A stretch of DNA of 64,000 nucleotides from a virus (taxonomy: Duplodnaviria; Heunggongvirae; Uroviricota; Caudoviricetes): IMG/VR virus record IMGVR_UViG_3300031998_000020. One strand, 5' to 3'. Position numbers and translations under genes: made by a program. Below the pieces are notes generated by a model that was not told the DNA's origin, made no database searches, and saw only the letters and a list, made by a program, of their open reading frames with translations. Positions 50,818-59,963 of the stretch are shown piece by piece. The number at the start of each line of letters is the position of its first letter. Position 1 is the stretch's first letter.

Positions 50818-51510
50818 ATGAAATATAGTATTCTAAAATTAAAAATTGAATTTGGTGGGACTGAGAAAGTCTTCACTGACCCAGTAGAGGATTATGTAAT
50901 TAGCTTTATCCACAAGGTTCTGGGTAAAAACAACAAATGGCACAGTGGATTTTCCGACTATAGTGTTTCGACACTACTCGGTGGTACTGCTAAAGATGGG
51001 GGCATGAGTTTTACAGATGGTGCCTATGTTTATGTATCTTCAACTAATGAGGATTTCATAAACACACTAACGGTTAACTTGGTCAAGAAGCAGGACGAAC
51101 TTTATCTTCGAGACATGAAGGTGACAAACTTTTCATTTCCGATGAGCACGGTCCATTCAGACTACGACCTTATCCGAACAAACAGCCCATTGCTATTGAA
51201 GGTCAAGGATGACAGGATTGTCACCTATCAAGATGAAGACTTCATTGACCTACTGACCAGTCAGTCACGCAAGAAGTTGTCACATCTCAATTGTTTCAGT
51301 GAGGATGAAATCGACAGCCTTAAAATTGAGCCATTCCATTTCGAGGGCGCATCTGTCAGATATGCAAAACGCAAGAATTTCTCTCTTCCAACCTCAATGG
51401 TAAAACTCATAGTAAAAGGAAAGGCAACATGCAGAAAGGCCCTTTACGAGATGGGGCTTGGAAATTCAACAGGATATTGCTTTGGCGCAGTAGAAATTTT
51501 AAGTAAGTAA
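50818..51510 (+). CDS. cas6: CRISPR-associated endoribonuclease Cas6
   Basis: IHKVLGKNNKWH...DYSVS, TNSPLLL, C-terminal Gly-rich loop GLGNSTGYCFG; first gene of the locus. Confidence 0.88.
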   Translation: MKYSILKLKIEFGGTEKVFTDPVEDYVISFIHKVLGKNNKWHSGFSDYSVSTLLGGTAKDGGMSFTDGAYVYVSSTNEDFINTLTVNLVKKQDELYLRDMKVTNFSFPMSTVHSDYDLIRTNSPLLLKVKDDRIVTYQDEDFIDLLTSQSRKKLSHLNCFSEDEIDSLKIEPFHFEGASVRYAKRKNFSLPTSMVKLIVKGKATCRKALYEMGLGNSTGYCFGAVEILSK

Positions 51511-51537: not shown

Positions 51538-52620
51538 ATGAAAAATTTATTGTTTAGAGTGGCCCTTAAGGGCAATGGCGTTGTTAATTTCGATGACAAC
51601 AAGCAGAAGAAGATGTTAGGTTTACATTGTGGTATGGACATTAGCTGGTCTTATAAGTACTACAACTTGAGTAAGAAGTCTTTCCGCAAGAAGGAAGGTG
51701 ATGACAAGGCTACCTACAACCTGAAAATCTCATCAACATGCCTTCGTCACGCATTGTTTGAGGACGATTACAAGGCAACCAATCCAACAATTTCTAAGGT
51801 TGACGTGTGTATGGCAGATTTCATTTCATCAGTTCCAGGTCTGTTGAGGGGATATATGTTCACTACACGAGGTTCAGGCAAGGGTGAGAATGCAGCGAAG
51901 GGTGACAAGGGCGAATGCTTTGTACTCAAGAGTCCTATTACTCTGACCAATGCAGAAGAGTGTACAGGAGCCATCCCTTACCTTGAGCTTAATTCCCCAA
52001 GCGGATACAAGCCTTCTAAGGAGAACGATGCAGACAAGAGTAGTACCAGTCTCTACTACACAGAGAATGTTGGTGACGTAATGTACAAGGCAAAGGGTGT
52101 AATTGACATCAAGTCGATGCAATTCCTGTCAGATGACCTACTCTTTGGACGTGTAGCGTTTAAGGACCAATGGCTTGAGGGTGACAGATTGCTGGACAAG
52201 GTATTTATGAACCATTACGGACGAATCCCTTACACAGAAGGCTTCTTCACCTCGACTAAGAATGTATTCGGTGAGCGTATTGCTGAGCATGGCGTAAAGT
52301 TCGACGATGAGTTTATCCGCTTCCTTGTTTGTGAAGCACTCAAGAGATTGCGCAAGATGAGTATCAAACGTGCAGGTGCTTATGCAGAGGTAACTTCTCT
52401 CCAGATTAAGATGGTCGACGATGGTACTTTTGACAACTTCGAGTCTGAGGACGGTTGGATGGAGGTGACTCCACAGTTGATTGAGAAGCTTTCCAAGGAG
52501 CTTGAAATCGATAACTTCTATGTCGAAGCCTCTGATACGCTCGTTAAGAAGACACGAGAGGAAATCGAAAAGGAGCTTCAAAAAGAGCGTGCTAAGGACA
52601 AGGCCAAGCAGAATGCTTAA
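51538..52620 (+). CDS. cas7: Cas7 backbone subunit (type I-B/DevR-like)
   Basis: N-terminal strand + N, KISSTCLRHALF, LRGYM, KSPITLTNA, SLYYTE...Y...IDI pattern of Cas7; CRISPR context. Confidence 0.8.
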   Translation: MKNLLFRVALKGNGVVNFDDNKQKKMLGLHCGMDISWSYKYYNLSKKSFRKKEGDDKATYNLKISSTCLRHALFEDDYKATNPTISKVDVCMADFISSVPGLLRGYMFTTRGSGKGENAAKGDKGECFVLKSPITLTNAEECTGAIPYLELNSPSGYKPSKENDADKSSTSLYYTENVGDVMYKAKGVIDIKSMQFLSDDLLFGRVAFKDQWLEGDRLLDKVFMNHYGRIPYTEGFFTSTKNVFGERIAEHGVKFDDEFIRFLVCEALKRLRKMSIKRAGAYAEVTSLQIKMVDDGTFDNFESEDGWMEVTPQLIEKLSKELEIDNFYVEASDTLVKKTREEIEKELQKERAKDKAKQNA

Positions 52621-52642: not shown

Positions 52643-53560
52643 ATGACACATTATCTCATATTAAAGTTTGAGAATGCAGGACTGGTTTATGGAAGAAGTA
52701 AGCACTTTGTCAGAAGTACTTATGGGAATGTAGGAAATATAGAAGTGAGTGAGGGTCATGATTGTGTGACCCCCATTCCCTACACCCTACTTAGTAACAT
52801 ACTTCACAAGATGTGCGGTGAGATTCCAGTCCCCTCAAAGAGGCCAACCATATTCCACAGGAGTAAAGTGTTGGACGATATAGCCAAAAAGAGCTATGTC
52901 AAATACAATATCAAGCCTATTGCCAACGACAAGGGTTACGGATATGACAACACAGAAGTGTTTGTTACTGCAAAGTATGCTTATAATGCCCACCAAAAAG
53001 TCGACACGAAATTCACCCTACATGATGGTCGTGTAATTGAACGTGTAGGTAGGTATAACTGGTCATATTTGGAGAAGGCTTGTGATAGCAAAGCCAATTT
53101 CGATATTGTTTGTAACTTCTTGTCAGACATTATCGGTGAGGATTGTAGAAAATACACCATGAAGGAGTTTATCACGAAACTGTCAGAATATTGGGATAGC
53201 GAAGACTTCAAGGCAAAGTTTACTCAGTTCCTGACAGAAAACAAGTTCCTATCTAATGCATGGGTCAATTTGTTCACTAACAAATCATCATCGGGTAGTA
53301 ATACGAGTTACACATCAAAAACTCCATTACTCTACACAAGTGGTGTGTCAGATATTATATATCTTGATGGACAAATCGTGTGCCCGATTGATAACGAAGA
53401 CGTTATCCAGGCATTACATGATAACGGAGGTACGGCAACCATCCTTGAGCATGGTCTGGTTTACATCAAAAAGATTGTAACAAACCCCAACATGATAAAT
53501 CTGGAAGATGGTTACGAGAAAATCTTCGACGAGAATCAAGCACAAGCGATTGACAATTAA
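52643..53560 (+). CDS. cas5: Cas5-like RAMP, enlarged (305 aa) by a helical insertion
   Basis: YLILKFENAG first strand, TPIPYTLLSNILHKMCG helix, C-terminal GGTATILEHGLVYI loop; follows cas7. Confidence 0.65.
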   Translation: MTHYLILKFENAGLVYGRSKHFVRSTYGNVGNIEVSEGHDCVTPIPYTLLSNILHKMCGEIPVPSKRPTIFHRSKVLDDIAKKSYVKYNIKPIANDKGYGYDNTEVFVTAKYAYNAHQKVDTKFTLHDGRVIERVGRYNWSYLEKACDSKANFDIVCNFLSDIIGEDCRKYTMKEFITKLSEYWDSEDFKAKFTQFLTENKFLSNAWVNLFTNKSSSGSNTSYTSKTPLLYTSGVSDIIYLDGQIVCPIDNEDVIQALHDNGGTATILEHGLVYIKKIVTNPNMINLEDGYEKIFDENQAQAIDN

Positions 53561-53577
53561 GGTGTTATGGGCTATAG

Positions 53578-54461
53578 GTTGTTAGTCATATAGATACGTA
53601 AGGTAATCACAACGACAAACTGAATATGTCATCTGCTCACTTGTTGTTAGTCATATAGATACGTAAGGTAATCACAACCGTTCTTGATACCGTATTTTTT
53701 TCTTCTGGTTGTTAGTCATATAGATACGTAAGGTAATCACAACTAAAACATATCATTTGGAATCTGTATGATGCTGTTAGTCATATAGATACGTAAGGTA
53801 ATCACAACACACAGGCTCAGAATCTGGCAATCCAAGAGCTGTTAGTCATATAGATACGTAAGGTAATCACAACGACCAGTTAGCAGTTACTCCAAAGGCT
53901 CAGGCTGTTAGTCATATAGATACGTAAGGTAATCACAACGCCTGGGCGTTTCAATACACTCCCATCATGTTGTTAGTCATATAAATACGTAAGGTAATCA
54001 CAACTTCCACTTCTGGACAGCCGACACTTATCAGGTTGTTAGTCATATATATACGTCAGGTAATCACAACCCTGTGTTCCAACCTGCTTACTAAGAGACG
54101 TTGTTAGTCATATAGATACGTAAGGTAATCACAACGTTGGCGTATTTCCTGCCCTGGCAAGTCAGTTGTTAGTCATATAGATACGTAAGGTAATCACAAC
54201 GATGTGTGCCAGGATTACATTGCCCATGCAGTTGTTAGTCATATAGATACGTAAGGTAATCACAACTATATGTTCACTTGATTATGAATTCCTTTGTTGT
54301 TAGCCATATAGATACGTAAGGTAATCACAATACGTTTGAAGAGGCTCTTTGTGAAACCTAGTTGTTACTCATATATATACGTCAGGTAATCACAAAAGTG
54401 GTATTGGAGCCTTAGAACAAGCATTGCGTTTAACCATATAGATATGTAAGGTAATCAAAAT
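53578..54461 (+). CRISPR. CRISPR array: 14 repeats of 36 nt, 13 spacers of 29-30 nt
   Basis: Consensus GTTGTTAGTCATATAGATACGTAAGGTAATCACAAC; repeats start at 53578, 53643, 53708, 53773, 53838, 53904, 53969, 54035, 54100, 54165, 54231, 54296, 54361, 54426 (last degenerate). A further remnant lies at about 54489-54520. Confidence 0.99.
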
Positions 54462-54538
54462 AGAAAACAAGGCATAGTAATTGCTTTAATTGTTATATTT
54501 TTACGTAAGGTAATTTTTATTTTTTAAATTATTAATGC

Positions 54539-56974
54539 ATGAAAAATAATAGTAACAAAATTGCCAGTTTTTTAGGCAAAAGTGATGTTAATACATTAAA
54601 TCACTACTTGATTAATCATACTAAAATGGTTCTTAACCTTGGTATGAGATTGGCAGATAACGAAAAGGCATGTGGTTATCGAGAAACTATATGCAATGGG
54701 AAGGACGAGTTTATGAAGAAACTGGCCCTGACATTAGTATTGCATGATATTGGCAAAATTGTCAAGGATTTTCAGAGGTATCTGAGCAAGAAGAAGACAA
54801 AGGCAAAACTGCCTCATAAAGTTTATTCATGGGCATACGTATCCAAGCGAGTAAAAGGCATCAATACCGATAAAAGGGTATGTATCAAATCTGCTATACT
54901 CTATCATCATGCCAGTTATCACAAATATGACACGTCATCCAACACCATTCTGAACCAGATGAGTAATGAGGATTTGGCCAACATGGATGCTTTTTATCAG
55001 GAAATGTCAGATTATTGCGTTAAGACTTTTGGCGAGAAGTTCAATCTGACAAAAATGTTCCCAATTATTGAAGATAGTGATGAATACGGTCAGTCTGAAA
55101 CTATAGAGAAGGTTCCTCTATACCACGAGATAGAGTTCAATAATGACTACGAGAAGACTATGGATGCCTTTGAAATAGATTCAATGGCTCAGTTGATACG
55201 TGCAATTCTCATTAGGGTAGACAGATTGGTATCTGGAATTCGCAATCAGGATGAGTTACAGAAGATACTTGACAATGACATTGAGTTCATGGATAAGCAT
55301 TATTGCCAATTGTCAGAGGTAGAGTTCAAGGATTCCATTGAGTGTGTGGATACAAAAAAGTTTTTTATGAATAATGCCTCTAAGTATGATGTTGGGAGAT
55401 TGCAAGACCAATTCAGTATTCTTGACCTGACCAAGGAATTCAATCATAATGCTATCAAGGCATGTGCAGGTTTCGGTAAGACACTTTTGGGTTTAATGTG
55501 GTTTTTGAGGGAAAAGAAATCATTATTATGGGTTACATCCAAAAATACTATCGTATCGAACACCTATAATTCTATCAAGAAAGAGTTGATGACATTAGGA
55601 TTGTATGACAAGGTGCGTATTTGCTCGTATTTTGAAGGTAATGTCATAGACACTAACTGTCCAGAAATCAGTGAGGATGATATTGACAAATATGATATCC
55701 TTGTGACTAACATAGATAGTATAGTGAACCGTACAGCCAAGAATAGTAAGGCACACCTTATGTTCAATATGTATGAGTCACATGTGATTTTTGACGAATA
55801 CCATGAATTTAAGTCAAAGGAGGCCATATTCTCTGCGTTCATCAGATTGATGTACATAAGAATTCATCATACCAATGCCAAAACTCTTTTAATGAGTGCA
55901 ACAGCCTCTGATTTCAGCTATTTGTGGTGTAACGGAGTCAATATGATTAATGACACCGAGGTTTTGTATGGTAATGAAACAAACATAAAAGTCTTCTATC
56001 ATGCATATTGTAAGGATGAAAAAGTTAATCTTCCGTCAGGTGATGTTTTAGCTATTTGTCAAACAGTGCAACAAGCATGTGATTTGTATGAAACGAATAA
56101 GAATCATGATGATGCAACGCTAATTCATGCAAGGTTTACGAAGGCCGACAAAACTGCTAAATACGAGAAGATTATGTCAACTCATGGTGACGGTAAGTCA
56201 GACCTTTCAAAAAGAGGTCTGGTAATCGGTACAAGCATTATCGGTACTGGACTTGACATGAGCAGTAAGATTCTTTATGACGTGGCTACATCACCAGAGT
56301 CAACGATACAGAGGGCTTGTGGCAGATGTTCACGTTTCGGTGAATACAAAGACATTGAGTATCATGTTTGTGACATTATCGACGATAGCAAGACTATTGT
56401 CAAGCAAGACTATACATTACGACTAAATGAGTTGTGGTTGGCTAAGTTGAAAGAGTTAAACAATAAGACAATCACCAAAACAAGGCTCTATGAGTTGTAT
56501 GAAGAGTTCCAAAAGGAACATGAGTCGTTAATCAAGAAACATTATGCCGATTTCTTCAATACCAGTTCTAAGAAACTGGGGGCGATTAGGCCATACGGCA
56601 CATTGCGGAAAGATGATAAAGACGATGATGCAGAATACGTTGGAAAGAAAGGCTATAGAGGTGATAATGATAGTGTCTACGTCACTGCAAAAGACCCGAC
56701 AAATGGTAACAATTGGTCAAATGTAATTCTGGTTAACCTGTCACATCTCTCAAAGGAAGAGAAGAATTCACGCCCAAGGAAAAATTTCCTGGGAGACCCA
56801 CCAAAGCCATTTAATTACGGGGATGTGCTACGCTGGAAGACACTTTCCAGTTATTCAGCCGAAGAATGTCAACAATTTGCTTTTTGCAGCAAAAGTCCTA
56901 TACCATTGTTTGATTATATCTACGACTCTGAACTGGGCTTGAGATGTATTCATGGCAATGATGATAACGAATAA
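54539..56974 (+). CDS. cas3: Cas3 HD nuclease-helicase
   Basis: HD domain (NHT, LHDIGK, YHH, RVDRLVS) plus SF2 motifs CAGFGKT, IFDEYH, MSAT, IHARF, TGLD, QRACGRCSR. Confidence 0.95.
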   Translation: MKNNSNKIASFLGKSDVNTLNHYLINHTKMVLNLGMRLADNEKACGYRETICNGKDEFMKKLALTLVLHDIGKIVKDFQRYLSKKKTKAKLPHKVYSWAYVSKRVKGINTDKRVCIKSAILYHHASYHKYDTSSNTILNQMSNEDLANMDAFYQEMSDYCVKTFGEKFNLTKMFPIIEDSDEYGQSETIEKVPLYHEIEFNNDYEKTMDAFEIDSMAQLIRAILIRVDRLVSGIRNQDELQKILDNDIEFMDKHYCQLSEVEFKDSIECVDTKKFFMNNASKYDVGRLQDQFSILDLTKEFNHNAIKACAGFGKTLLGLMWFLREKKSLLWVTSKNTIVSNTYNSIKKELMTLGLYDKVRICSYFEGNVIDTNCPEISEDDIDKYDILVTNIDSIVNRTAKNSKAHLMFNMYESHVIFDEYHEFKSKEAIFSAFIRLMYIRIHHTNAKTLLMSATASDFSYLWCNGVNMINDTEVLYGNETNIKVFYHAYCKDEKVNLPSGDVLAICQTVQQACDLYETNKNHDDATLIHARFTKADKTAKYEKIMSTHGDGKSDLSKRGLVIGTSIIGTGLDMSSKILYDVATSPESTIQRACGRCSRFGEYKDIEYHVCDIIDDSKTIVKQDYTLRLNELWLAKLKELNNKTITKTRLYELYEEFQKEHESLIKKHYADFFNTSSKKLGAIRPYGTLRKDDKDDDAEYVGKKGYRGDNDSVYVTAKDPTNGNNWSNVILVNLSHLSKEEKNSRPRKNFLGDPPKPFNYGDVLRWKTLSSYSAEECQQFAFCSKSPIPLFDYIYDSELGLRCIHGNDDNE

Positions 56975-57328: not shown

Positions 57329-57425
57329 GTTTTTAAGTATTTGTTAGTAATAAATATCAAAAAAAACTTTCTTATGTAAAAAAAAATCAGTATCTTTGCA
57401 ATATAATTGTTTAAATATCACAATA

Positions 57426-58184
57426 ATGTCTAAAGAAAATTTCCCTAAAGAAAAAATGATATCAAGATTTGGAGCTTCCTTGGAATACAATGAGGTCACA
57501 ATTCTTGGTGAGGTAAAGGATATATTAGCAGAATATCCTTCACGTGTTATTGCTGAATTCACAGGTTTGGATGAGAACTATATTGACAGGATTCGAGCCA
57601 GGAGAGAGAAATTAAGCAACATAACTCTTGGAGATTTCTGTAAAATCAAGTCCATGAAGGCTGTTCCCGATTGGTATTGTCCAGAAATGTATAAGGACAA
57701 GGAATACGGGCCAGAGGTAAAAGAGGAAGACATAAAGCCAAGTACCAAGGAAACGCCAGAAGAGAATTGTGAGCAACCAAGGAATGATAAGGCAGTAAAC
57801 GGCAATACAGGTATTTTGGATGTTGCCAAAGTATATGCAGATGCAGCAGAAGAAGCCAAAATCAAGCTTTTCGGTAGAAAAATGCTGCCAAGTAGCATGA
57901 CTTTCGAAGAAATGAAGGAATGCCTGAAAGAAAACGGCTGGACAGATGAGTTCGACTTCGACGATGATGAAAAGAGTGACAGTATGAGACTGAGGGTTTT
58001 CCTATATAGAAAGCTGACTGAACTGACAAAGGAAATATACCAGGCAAGGAAGAATAAGCAAGAGAAAAAGGATACCCAGCCAAAACACAAGGACCAAAGT
58101 GACTATAAGAGCGAGTTAGCTGGTATACAGGAGCTTTTTGACAATCTGTTCGGTAAAGGAAACGTGTTTTTCAGTAAATTTTAA
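57426..58184 (+). CDS. Hypothetical protein with possible N-terminal HTH
   Basis: SRVIAEFTGLDENYIDRIRARREKLSNITLG is XRE-HTH-like; TATCTTTG at 57391; ATG 57426. Confidence 0.55.
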   Translation: MSKENFPKEKMISRFGASLEYNEVTILGEVKDILAEYPSRVIAEFTGLDENYIDRIRARREKLSNITLGDFCKIKSMKAVPDWYCPEMYKDKEYGPEVKEEDIKPSTKETPEENCEQPRNDKAVNGNTGILDVAKVYADAAEEAKIKLFGRKMLPSSMTFEEMKECLKENGWTDEFDFDDDEKSDSMRLRVFLYRKLTELTKEIYQARKNKQEKKDTQPKHKDQSDYKSELAGIQELFDNLFGKGNVFFSKF

Positions 58185-58187
58185 GTA

Positions 58188-59963
58188 ATGGAATATATCC
58201 CTTCCAAATATCAATTAGCGATATTTGATTTCGTCGAGAAAGACCACGGGAATGCTGTCATAGAGGCCGTGCCAGGGGCAGGTAAGACATACACCCTGAT
58301 ACAATGCCTCAAGCATATTCCCAAGAACGCCAAGGTATTGGTTGCTGCCTTCAACACAGACATCATAGGTGAGCTAAAAGGAAAGATAGCCAAACTGGAA
58401 GACAAGCCCAATATAGACTGTAGGACACTACACTCTCTGGGTTTGTCTATCCTTGTTTCCAACTATTACGACAAGATAGATACAACCCCATCCGACTATA
58501 AGTATAGCAATTATATAACAGCGTATCTTTCTGATTACAAGGAGGATGAGTACACACAGCTTTCCAAGAAAGAGAAGAAAGCATATGCTGAGAATATCAA
58601 GACATTTGTTGATTTCGGCAGGTACTACCTCTGTAAGACCGAAAAAGACCTCCAGAAGGTCCAAGACCAGTATTCCTTCGATTGCATCGGCAATGAGAAG
58701 AAAATAGCCCTAGAGGTCATGAAATGGGGCAAGGAGCATATAGAAATCATTGACTTCACTGATATGGTCTGGCTTCCTATAGTGCTCAACTGCAAGCCAT
58801 ACAACCATCTATATGACTGGATATTGGTGGATGAGGCACAGGACCTTGAGAAAGAGGAAAGGGTGCTGATTGAACTGTGTACCAAGATGCAAACCAGGAG
58901 GTTATTCTTCGGTGAAAAGAAACAGACCATCAACATATTCAAAGGTACTGACAACAAGACGTTTACGTCATTACAGGAAATACCCAATACCATTAAAATG
59001 CCTTTGTCCATTACATATAGGTGCCCAAAATCTGTTGTGCGTTTTCTTCATCGTTACAATCCACAGGTACAGGCAGCACCAAATGCTATTGAAGGTGTAG
59101 TAAAGTGGCATTGTGACATTAATGAGATTGAGGATGGGTCAATGGTGCTTTGCAGGGCTAATGCTCCGTTAATGGAGTTGTATGCCCAACTGTCTGACCT
59201 CGGCAAGACTGCCTTTATCAGAGGCAAAGACATAGGCAAGAATCTCATAAGCCTGATTGAGAACACACACGAAGAGAATCTGAACAAAGACCTGAAAGAT
59301 AAGGGTGTGTTTTCTGCTTTGTATGACCAGTTAATCAGCACTATTGACGAGGTGATGAGGAAGAATAGGATATCAGAGGAAATGGCAATAGAGGACTTGA
59401 ATGTGGCTCAGTTTTACGACAAGATAATGGCTCTTGAAGCCATCGTGGGAAATTGTACTACAGCCAAGGAAATGACCGACAAGATAGAGTCTCTTTTCTC
59501 AGATGAGGAAAAGACAGGTATCACATTGTCTACCGTACACAAAGCCAAAGGACTCGAAGCTGACAATGTGTATATATGCTGTCCGTCACTCTTACCTTCC
59601 AAGAATGCCAAATTGCCTTGGGAAATTGAATCAGAGGAAAATCTGTGCTATGTGGCATATTCAAGGCCTAAGAAGAAACTGTGTTTTCTCAATGAGGACA
59701 ACATGTCGAAATACTCCATGACATCACAGCAGAAGTTGAATGCCTTACAGCTAATCAAGGTTAAGATATTCTATTTGTATGGGGATGCAATAAGGTGTTC
59801 TGGAATCACACCAACTTTTGAGACTGCAAAAGTGATTATTGAGCATTCCACCAAGATTGAAGAGCTTAAGGAGAATGTTAAAACAGTTAACAATGTGGTA
59901 AATAACAGTTCTTTTTCATCATTCAAGAACTTTGGTTTGTCAAAAAAGAAGAAAAAATGTTAA
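58188..59963 (+). CDS. UvrD/Rep-like SF1 helicase
   Basis: AVPGAGKT, TLHSLG, LVDEAQD, LSITYRCP, LSTVHKAKGLE, YVAYSR. Confidence 0.9.
   Translation: MEYIPSKYQLAIFDFVEKDHGNAVIEAVPGAGKTYTLIQCLKHIPKNAKVLVAAFNTDIIGELKGKIAKLEDKPNIDCRTLHSLGLSILVSNYYDKIDTTPSDYKYSNYITAYLSDYKEDEYTQLSKKEKKAYAENIKTFVDFGRYYLCKTEKDLQKVQDQYSFDCIGNEKKIALEVMKWGKEHIEIIDFTDMVWLPIVLNCKPYNHLYDWILVDEAQDLEKEERVLIELCTKMQTRRLFFGEKKQTINIFKGTDNKTFTSLQEIPNTIKMPLSITYRCPKSVVRFLHRYNPQVQAAPNAIEGVVKWHCDINEIEDGSMVLCRANAPLMELYAQLSDLGKTAFIRGKDIGKNLISLIENTHEENLNKDLKDKGVFSALYDQLISTIDEVMRKNRISEEMAIEDLNVAQFYDKIMALEAIVGNCTTAKEMTDKIESLFSDEEKTGITLSTVHKAKGLEADNVYICCPSLLPSKNAKLPWEIESEENLCYVAYSRPKKKLCFLNEDNMSKYSMTSQQKLNALQLIKVKIFYLYGDAIRCSGITPTFETAKVIIEHSTKIEELKENVKTVNNVVNNSSFSSFKNFGLSKKKKKC

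Follow-up and report, generated by a model that had tools for sequence, protein, structure and literature searches.

We analysed a 64,000-nucleotide (nt) stretch of the Caudoviricetes virus record IMGVR_UViG_3300031998_000020 (the window, by which the whole stretch is meant) and found, at 53578-54461 on the + strand, a CRISPR array embedded among the genes of a type I effector. The data indicate that a class 1 effector carried by a virus uses the kind of array that otherwise accompanies Cas9 and Cas13b in Bacteroidota. Because this effector was found with an array in class 2 style, with polarised acquisition and with no adaptation genes, capture of the spacers in trans by a host integrase is the best reading of the data, and a likely one. 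The fuller account, that this is the working array of a phage-borne, Cas8-less, I-F2-like system served by host Cas1-Cas2 in trans, with a II-C module as the most plausible donor, is one that we favour somewhat.

Array architecture and effector genes

The array comprised 14 full 36-nt repeats recurring every 65-66 nt, separated by 13 spacers of 29, 29, 29, 29, 30, 29, 30, 29, 29, 30, 29, 29 and 29 nt, in order. The repeat consensus began GTTGTTAGT and ended GGTAATCACAAC, its termini GTTGT and ACAAC were mutually reverse complementary, and its final 8 nt were ATCACAAC. Eleven of the 14 repeats were identical or one to two bases apart, and repeats 4-6 (53773, 53838 and 53904) started with GCTGTT. 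Repeats were uniform at the 5′ side, repeats 12-14 were progressively degenerate toward the 3′ side, and repeat comparison placed a decayed remnant of a 15th repeat at the trailer end (54485-54520, + strand). Fourteen copies at fixed spacing adjoining cas genes are far beyond chance, and this is confirmed as a real CRISPR array; it has the regular repeats, unique spacers of constant length, adjoining cas genes and degenerate terminal repeat of CRISPR arrays in general. An earlier, sequence-only reading had described the repeat length, the inverted ends, the three GCTGTT starts and the 29-30-nt spacers, all correctly when set against the 14 measured repeats.

No Rfam family matched the array, and a single repeat folded no better than its shuffles. 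Across lineages of the phage family described below, a 5-bp hairpin joining repeat positions 16-20 and 26-30 received modest support, 68% of cells being paired where shuffles gave 58%; the neighbouring register had no cross-lineage support. A literature search with the repeat sequence returned unrelated primers only.

The array sat inside one + strand block in the order cas6, Cas7fv-like gene, Cas5fv-like gene, array, cas3. The product of cas6 (50818-51510, + strand, 230 aa), the presumed endonuclease of the CRISPR RNA (crRNA) precursor, belonged to the general Cas6 family (TIGR01877 cas_cas6, 59.7 bits against a cut-off of 58.65; PF01881, 1.2e-12) and not to the Cas6f/Csy4 family. The Cas7fv-like backbone subunit (51538-52620, + strand, 360 aa) matched NF040577 Cas7fv (9.2e-25) and PF28157 Cas7fv-like. 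A profile of 23 Cas7 homologues matched Cas7fv of the Shewanella I-Fv Cascade (5o6u_C in 5O6U, E 2.7e-32) and, about equally, the I-F2 Cas7 9g44_F (9G44, E 2.9e-32). The 305-aa product of the next gene (52643-53560, + strand) had no hidden Markov model (HMM) match. Its AlphaFold (AF2) model, with a predicted local distance difference test score of 69, showed a Cas5fv-like fold with a helical insertion; the top structural match was Cas5fv (5o6u_F) at a moderate Z of 8.4, followed by the Cas5 proteins of I-E, I-A, I-C and I-B at Z 6-7. Downstream of the array, cas3 (54539-56974, + strand, 811 aa) encodes an HD nuclease and a superfamily 2 (SF2) helicase (TIGR01596 cas3_HD, 2e-15; TIGR01587 cas3_core, 2.4e-25; PF18019; PF22590). 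The HD domain begins at residue 13, and the protein has no Cas2 domain.

The type I set was therefore complete, with Cas3 (HD and SF2 helicase), Cas5, Cas7 and Cas6, and intergenic gaps of 17-77 nt left no room for cas8 or cas11. Because of the Cas7fv profile match and the best fold match to Cas5fv, the effector is, as judged by profiles and a structural model, a Cas8-less, Cas11-less, I-F2-like type I system. The type I-B affiliation assumed in the sequence-only reading was not borne out; its proposal that a class-2-style array serves a class 1 effector held, since repeats of the II-C/VI-B family stood with Cas3-based type I genes.

The 3′ end of the Cas5fv-like gene doubles as the array leader. 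Between its stop codon and repeat 1 lay a leader-proximal junction of 17 nt (53561-53577, + strand), nearly identical in a sister phage (L126-L133). A GAGAAAATTTT-like stretch was found about 58 nt before repeat 1 (within 53480-53577 of the window), with equivalents in L126, L001, L134, L140 and L141. It encodes a conserved EKIF near the Cas5-like C-terminus, and its distance to the array is constant, though the stop codon lies anywhere from 6 to 47 nt before repeat 1. This stretch may be a leader or promoter element inside coding sequence.

Spacer turnover and targets in a phage family

The same module, in the same 36/30 format, was found in at least 14 repeat lineages, all on phage-like metagenomic contigs, with Cas7 identity within the family falling to about 30%. 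Homologues of Cas7 and Cas3 occurred on metagenomic contigs only, many of them 123-743 kb long and rich in phage-type or unknown genes. Every family locus had the same four cas genes, arranged in one of a few orders. In the 14 lineages all repeats were 36 nt, spacers were 29-31 nt, and the array mostly followed directly after the cas5-like gene. An ungapped alignment of the repeats across lineages showed conservation of T3, G4, T5, ATA at positions 11-13 and the 3′ block AAGGnAATCACAAC. The Cas7 profile matched nothing in 401 sampled Bacteroidota genomes, while its positive control worked (the family was found in IMG/VR at E 1e-79). The window itself was not found in IMG/VR or INPHARED, either as DNA or through closely similar proteins. 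When metagenomes were scanned for the repeat junction of the window, four loci came back, each from this phage family, and the public runs containing the window locus were bovine and sheep gut metagenomes, with no RNA run among those listed.

Related arrays from different samples were compared, and parts of an array without contig cover in other samples were not counted as absence. L138, L140 and L139, which represent one phage in three samples with 100% identical Cas7, had nine trailer spacers in common, lying between degenerate repeats. On the cas5 side they carried six, seven and two other spacers, respectively, of which four were common to L138 and L140 in a nested arrangement. The same nested leader-end pattern was seen in L151, L152 and L150, and the first spacer of the sister phage varied by sample (L126 versus L127 versus L128). 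In L141 the older repeats ended ATCACAAC and all newer ones ATCAAAAC, so that a variant spreads from the leader end, as expected if a first repeat had mutated and was then duplicated. One contig from a sheep metagenome belonged to the window's own phage, its flanks being 98% identical; it had a different spacer and skipped 196 nt, or three array units. New spacers were unique and lay beside perfect copies of repeat 1, and among the 133 distinct spacers of the family there was almost no sharing between lineages. At the other end, the window and the sister phage (Cas7 78%, Cas3 51% identical) kept the oldest spacer in common: spacer 13 (54397-54425, + strand) matched L153:163-191, in the trailer just before cas3, at 28 of 29 nt. 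Nested cas5-side differences over a shared trailer are the signature of ongoing polarised integration, and we regard such acquisition as established. In natural populations the array is still being written, and spacers vary at the leader end of loci without adaptation genes, as acquisition in trans requires.

Tandem duplicated spacers also occurred (L152:6600-7320, L003:12210-12340 and L001:12331-12440). In L152 one spacer ran through four consecutive copies, flanked by another that occurred twice. Repeat-mediated recombination thus remodels the arrays in addition to acquisition.

One target was identified. Spacer 6 (53940-53968, + strand) matched the antisense strand of the sister-phage cas5-like gene at 27 of 29 nt (L126:11518-11546, minus strand), where the window's own gene differs at many positions. 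A 317-nt bovine-metagenome contig carried the spacer-6 protospacer with at most one mismatch, and the match extended two bases (GT) past the spacer. The flanks of this protospacer (...ATGTATACCT upstream, AATTTGAACG... downstream) were closely like those in the L126 cas5-like gene, and not like array sequence. Because spacer 6 matches the cas5-like gene of the sister phage and not that of the window, the phage aims at a rival's CRISPR locus. Spacer 6 was the only one of the 133 family spacers with a true protospacer in the collected phage DNA. The window, L140 and L141 arrays had no convincing protospacer in INPHARED, the three newest spacers matched only themselves in IMG/VR, and 1,740 cellular II-C spacers matched phage DNA at chance level only.

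Repeat kinship with Bacteroidota class 2 arrays

Species genomes were scanned for the pattern ...AATCACAAC, a 29-30-nt gap and G[C/T]TG...AATCACAAC. At least 120 loci with G[T/C]TG...AATCACAAC ends and 29-30-nt spacers were returned, almost all from Bacteroidota. Among the matches listed, repeats were mostly 46-47 nt with few of 35-36 nt, and phmmer located a type II Cas1 within 8 kb at 66 loci. Large open reading frames (ORFs) adjoining nine sampled arrays encoded Cas9 (TIGR01865) in seven cases, and type II Cas1 (TIGR03639) in the one tested. Repeats of 35-36 nt were present in five verified II-C loci (L006, L046, L047, L101 and L039); 97 distinct repeats were 43-49 nt. The window repeat was identical to one 36-nt II-C repeat at 22 of 36 ungapped positions, a score reached by 1 in 10,000 shuffles, and family repeats matched 35-36-nt II-C repeats at up to 26 of 36. 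When only the positions left unfixed by the search pattern (10-22 from the 3′ end) were scored on a II-C profile, at least 97.6% of internal shuffles scored below the true repeat in 10 of 12 lineages (window, p = 0.011). Polarity agreed as well. The II-C loci were ordered cas9, cas1, cas2, leader and then repeats reading GTTG...AATCACAAC. Of 23 arrays, 22 had an intact first repeat and 10 a degenerate last one, the same polarity as in the phage arrays.

Published VI-B repeats are 36 nt long with GUUG...CAAC ends and 30-nt protospacers (bioRxiv 10.1101/092577), and II-C and VI-B have leader-distal repeat motifs in common across species (PMC8092290). The window array combined the G[T/C]TGT... 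start, ...AATCACAAC end and 29-30-nt spacers of the Bacteroidota II-C family with the repeat length, GUUG...CAAC-type ends and 30-nt spacer format of VI-B. The window repeat had no U-run and thus no VI-B poly-U loop, and cas13b was not beside the array, whose flanks are type I cas genes. A strict VI-B-format pattern matched nothing in the 401 Bacteroidota genomes, and the orphan 36-nt arrays L014, L035 and L117 had no cas13b in the flanks examined. The Bergeyella Cas13b repeat, which presumably ends GGGTAATCACAAC, was not used as evidence. Sequence comparison at this level showed the window repeat to belong to the Bacteroidota II-C/VI-B family, by its 36-nt length, G[T/C]TGT start, ...GAAAGG(T/A)AATCACAAC end and leader polarity.

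The phage arrays differed clearly from II-C in one element. A TAnnTTTG promoter box, at positions 23-25 of the Cas9-sense strand, was present in 51 of 104 II-C repeats versus 0 of 12 phage repeats; its absence fits transcription of the phage arrays from the leader, the VI-B direction. Over the 70 nt preceding repeat 1, Bacteroidota II-C leaders (59 loci among L006-L125) had a T-run at about -59 to -54, followed by a TCC/TCTAA-like motif. In the window no cas9, cas1 or cas2 was adjacent, and the conserved T-rich II-C leader motif (about -58) was not matched. A position weight matrix of the II-C leaders fitted only L145 and, weakly, L003 and L141, with no consistent match across phage leaders.

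Source of the spacers

An integrase encoded by the phage itself was sought. An HMM built from 62 II-C Cas1 proteins was run on six-frame ORFs and matched nothing in the window or at 12 family loci (covered for about 20 kb around the module), no cas1 or cas2 was found within 10 kb of the module at any family locus (about 15 related loci), and Pfam Cas1 and Cas2 had no match in three relatives from IMG/VR, one of them a 173-kb record with a CheckV completeness of 82%, while the controls worked. The sequence-only reading had named a phage-encoded cas1 or cas2 as the finding that would speak against it; none was found in the window, the related loci or the 173-kb relative.

The evidence would be accounted for as follows. 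Transcription of the array would run from the cas operon or leader along the + strand, and Cas6, at a cut site placed by inference, would cleave each repeat to leave an 8-nt AUCACAAC 5′ tag. A small Cascade of Cas5, Cas6 and probably five or six Cas7 subunits, a size drawn from the 6-nt periodicity of I-Fv (PMC4937334) where the sequence-only reading had suggested about five Cas7, would then guide Cas3 against rival phages. New spacers are inserted on the side next to cas5, and the first repeat is duplicated in the process. The integrating agent would be host Cas1-Cas2 in trans, most plausibly from the common Bacteroidota II-C module.

Whether that donor is II-C seems to us about evenly balanced; repeat kinship, spacer length, polarity and precedent argue for it. 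The sequence-only reading, which had proposed a hijack of host II-C acquisition, stood as to acquisition, in that no cas1 or cas2 was found and spacers are gained at the leader end in nature, and was no more than plausible on the identity of the donor. Several observations weigh on the other side: an unmatched leader, a 36-nt repeat, and the effector's need for a protospacer-adjacent motif (PAM). With the II-C leader matrix, the in-register position of the window leader ranked 207 of 401 offsets. Most II-C repeats of Bacteroidales span 46-47 nt, which poses a difficulty if the integrase gauges the length of the repeat. The GTTG start has been lost in some lineages (L134, L140) while the ATCACAAC tag was kept, and because ATCACAAC is the presumed crRNA 5′ tag, its conservation may owe as much to binding by Cas5/Cas7 of Cascade or by Cas6 as to an integrase. 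A type I effector also needs its own PAM; where a Cas9 PAM governed the choice of spacers, most would be without it unless the two were compatible. II-C-captured spacers would therefore bear the type I PAM only by chance or selection, and the single protospacer (5′ flank ...TATACCT) is too few to define one. The mismatch in repeat length was raised likewise by Hoikkala et al. for VI-B and II-C (PMC8092290). On orientation the two systems agree: in II-C the PAM end of the spacer faces the leader (PMC8092290), and this leader-facing end is the ATCACAAC side, where a type I crRNA expects its PAM, so that II-C-captured spacers would be correctly oriented.

The unlike leader, the length of the repeat and the loss of GTTG beside a retained tag would also suit integration in trans by a host module other than II-C, for example a VI-B-linked reverse transcriptase (RT)-Cas1/Cas2 or the Cas1-Cas2 of I-B, I-C or III-B. 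The likeness to II-C would then reflect old descent from a captured class 2 array together with effector constraint on the tag. Gut-bacterial VI-B1 systems do own RT-Cas1/Cas2 (PMC11662929). We nevertheless consider this origin unlikely. The 29-30-nt spacers have the II-C and VI-B length, Bacteroidota type I and III modules generally giving longer ones, and 36-nt II-C repeats exist. Similarity to II-C moreover covers about 20 nt at the leader-distal end, the part common to II-C and VI-B across species (PMC8092290). That nothing was borrowed, the phage having its own Cas1-Cas2 elsewhere in the genome, is improbable. The search of the window covered 64 kb of a 166.5-kb contig, so that a distant cas1-cas2 could lie in the other 100 kb or so, unlikely as that is, and ICP1-type phages bear a full adaptation module (cited in PMC7162821). 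Against this, no Cas1-like ORF was present in the window or, over about 20 kb surrounding the module, in 12 relatives; the 173-kb relative had neither Cas1 nor Cas2; and, according to the same paper, Cas1, Cas2 and Cas4 are absent from almost all huge-phage CRISPR systems.

We likewise give little credence, and marginally less, to an array without de novo acquisition, altered by recombination, deletion and duplication among co-infecting relatives, with spacers inherited from an ancestor that had an integrase. The tandem duplications in L152, L003 and L001 agree with such a process, and the succession of GTTGTT, GCTGTT and GTTGTT repeat variants along the window array suggests some shuffling. 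In three independent lineages, nonetheless, the differences formed nested sets at the leader end only, the trailer being identical, and the new spacers were unique, beside perfect repeat-1 copies, with almost no sharing of the 133 between lineages. Least probable of all, and scarcely credible, is that the II-C-like repeats serve mainly as mimics, antisense transcripts pairing with host trans-activating CRISPR RNA to load or titrate Cas9 (an RNA anti-CRISPR or Cas9 hijack). The reverse complement of the repeat does start GTTGTGATT, as in Cas9 crRNA repeats. The similarity is partial past the first 9 nt of the Cas9-sense strand, however, the TAnnTTTG box was absent from all 12 phage repeats, and the array is always embedded between the cas5 and cas3 of its own effector.

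Acquisition by a host integrase in trans has precedents, which differ from the phage system in instructive ways. The VI-B system of Flavobacterium columnare takes spacers in trans via II-C Cas1 (Hoikkala et al. 2021, PMC8092290). Both this dependence and the VI-B repeat format of bioRxiv 10.1101/092577 had been correctly stated in the sequence-only reading, as had the II-C repeat ends, which the genome scan recovered as a G[T/C]TG start and a AATCACAAC end. The F. columnare array resembles the phage array in its 36-nt repeat, 30-nt spacers, GTTG...CAAC ends, lack of local adaptation genes, leader-to-array transcription and leader-end spacer gain. Its effector is Cas13b, whereas the phage effector targets DNA through a type I complex of several subunits with Cas3 and needs a PAM; the phage array is also viral, so that donor and recipient would be in separate genomes, and its acquisition in trans is deduced here. 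Plasmid IV-A3 systems acquire spacers in trans from host type I-E (bioRxiv 10.1101/2023.06.23.546257; PMC8092290). Like the phage system, they have a class 1 effector on a mobile element, no cas1-cas2 and host-like repeats, and are used against competing mobile elements. Their donor and recipient are both class 1, however, with leader and PAM in common, whereas the look-alike donor of the phage is class 2 (Cas9) and its leader is unshared; the carrier here is a lytic-type jumbo phage rather than a plasmid.

As regards the effector, the nearest known system is I-F2 (I-Fv) of Shewanella putrefaciens CN-32 (PDB 5O6U and 9G44; PMC4937334), which likewise has a Cas7fv homologue, a Cas5fv-like subunit with a helical insertion and no Cas8 or Cas11. 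It differs in using Cas6f, where the phage Cas6 is of the general family, in having a Cas2-3 fusion and Cas1, where the phage Cas3 stands alone and no Cas1 was found, and in its 28/32 repeat/spacer format against 36/29-30; the phage array also lies inside the operon. CRISPR systems of huge phages without Cas1, Cas2 or Cas4, and with host-like repeats, are already known in general: in the accessible part of Al-Shayeb et al. 2020 (PMC7162821), some repeats are shared with hosts and spacers target other phages. The systems covered there are a Cas6-less I-C variant and class 2, unlike the I-F2-like module, and that part of the paper described neither such a module nor polarised turnover nor a type I effector with repeats of the II-C type. 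A literature search likewise found no paper on an I-F2-like phage family, on II-C-type repeats with a type I effector or on its natural spacer turnover.

These results bear on how CRISPR systems without adaptation genes stay current. Previous instances of trans-adaptation were within one cell, from class 2 to class 2 (II-C to VI-B) or from class 1 to class 1 (I-E to IV-A3). A broader proposal, to which we hold tentatively and at a little below even confidence, is that a jumbo-phage family of Bacteroidota runs an I-F2-like Cascade-Cas3 on arrays kept compatible with host II-C Cas1-Cas2(-Cas9), and so outsources its memory against rivals, including their CRISPR loci. If true, adaptation would here be shared for the first time between virus and host and across CRISPR classes. 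Were the donor the host II-C integrase, repeat ends, and not effector type, would decide who shares an adaptation machine, phages could exploit host immunity in phage-versus-phage warfare, and a compact Cas8-less Cascade with 30-nt guides would be open to study. The family lends itself to concrete tests: it has several lineages, its newest spacers are known, and one target has been identified.

Other features of the phage loci were also recorded. The window further encodes ThyA, a ClpA/B-like ATPase and an RlpA-like protein. On the 3′ side of cas3 (57396-59963) lay an ORF of 262 aa without a family match and a 591-aa UvrD/Rep-like helicase, a pair kept in the sister phage (L153) and not beside cas3 in remoter relatives. 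Between the window and the sister phage the Cas5-like proteins were 72% identical; Cas3 (sister phage P0025), at 51% against 78% for Cas7, has either evolved faster or been exchanged. In two related phages, genes for TnpB/OrfB_IS605 (Cas12f1-like_TNB) occurred a few kb from the module, at L134:1-1190 and L139:3146-4399, and in the phage represented by L138 and L139 the gene was present in one copy and absent from the other. L151 (ODIQ01000108) and L149 (ODJA01000067) had another gene order, with a mini-array of 2-3 repeats followed by cas3, cas6, cas7, the cas5-like gene and the main array; in L149 the two arrays are about 8 kb apart with several ORFs between. Finally, L154, on a contig of a metagenome-assembled genome labelled Bacteroidales (JBOGCI010000720), was ordered cas3, cas7, cas5, cas6, array, among ART-PolyVal, Tad6 and NADAR genes; the contig probably comes from a phage and was assigned to a bacterial genome by mis-binning.

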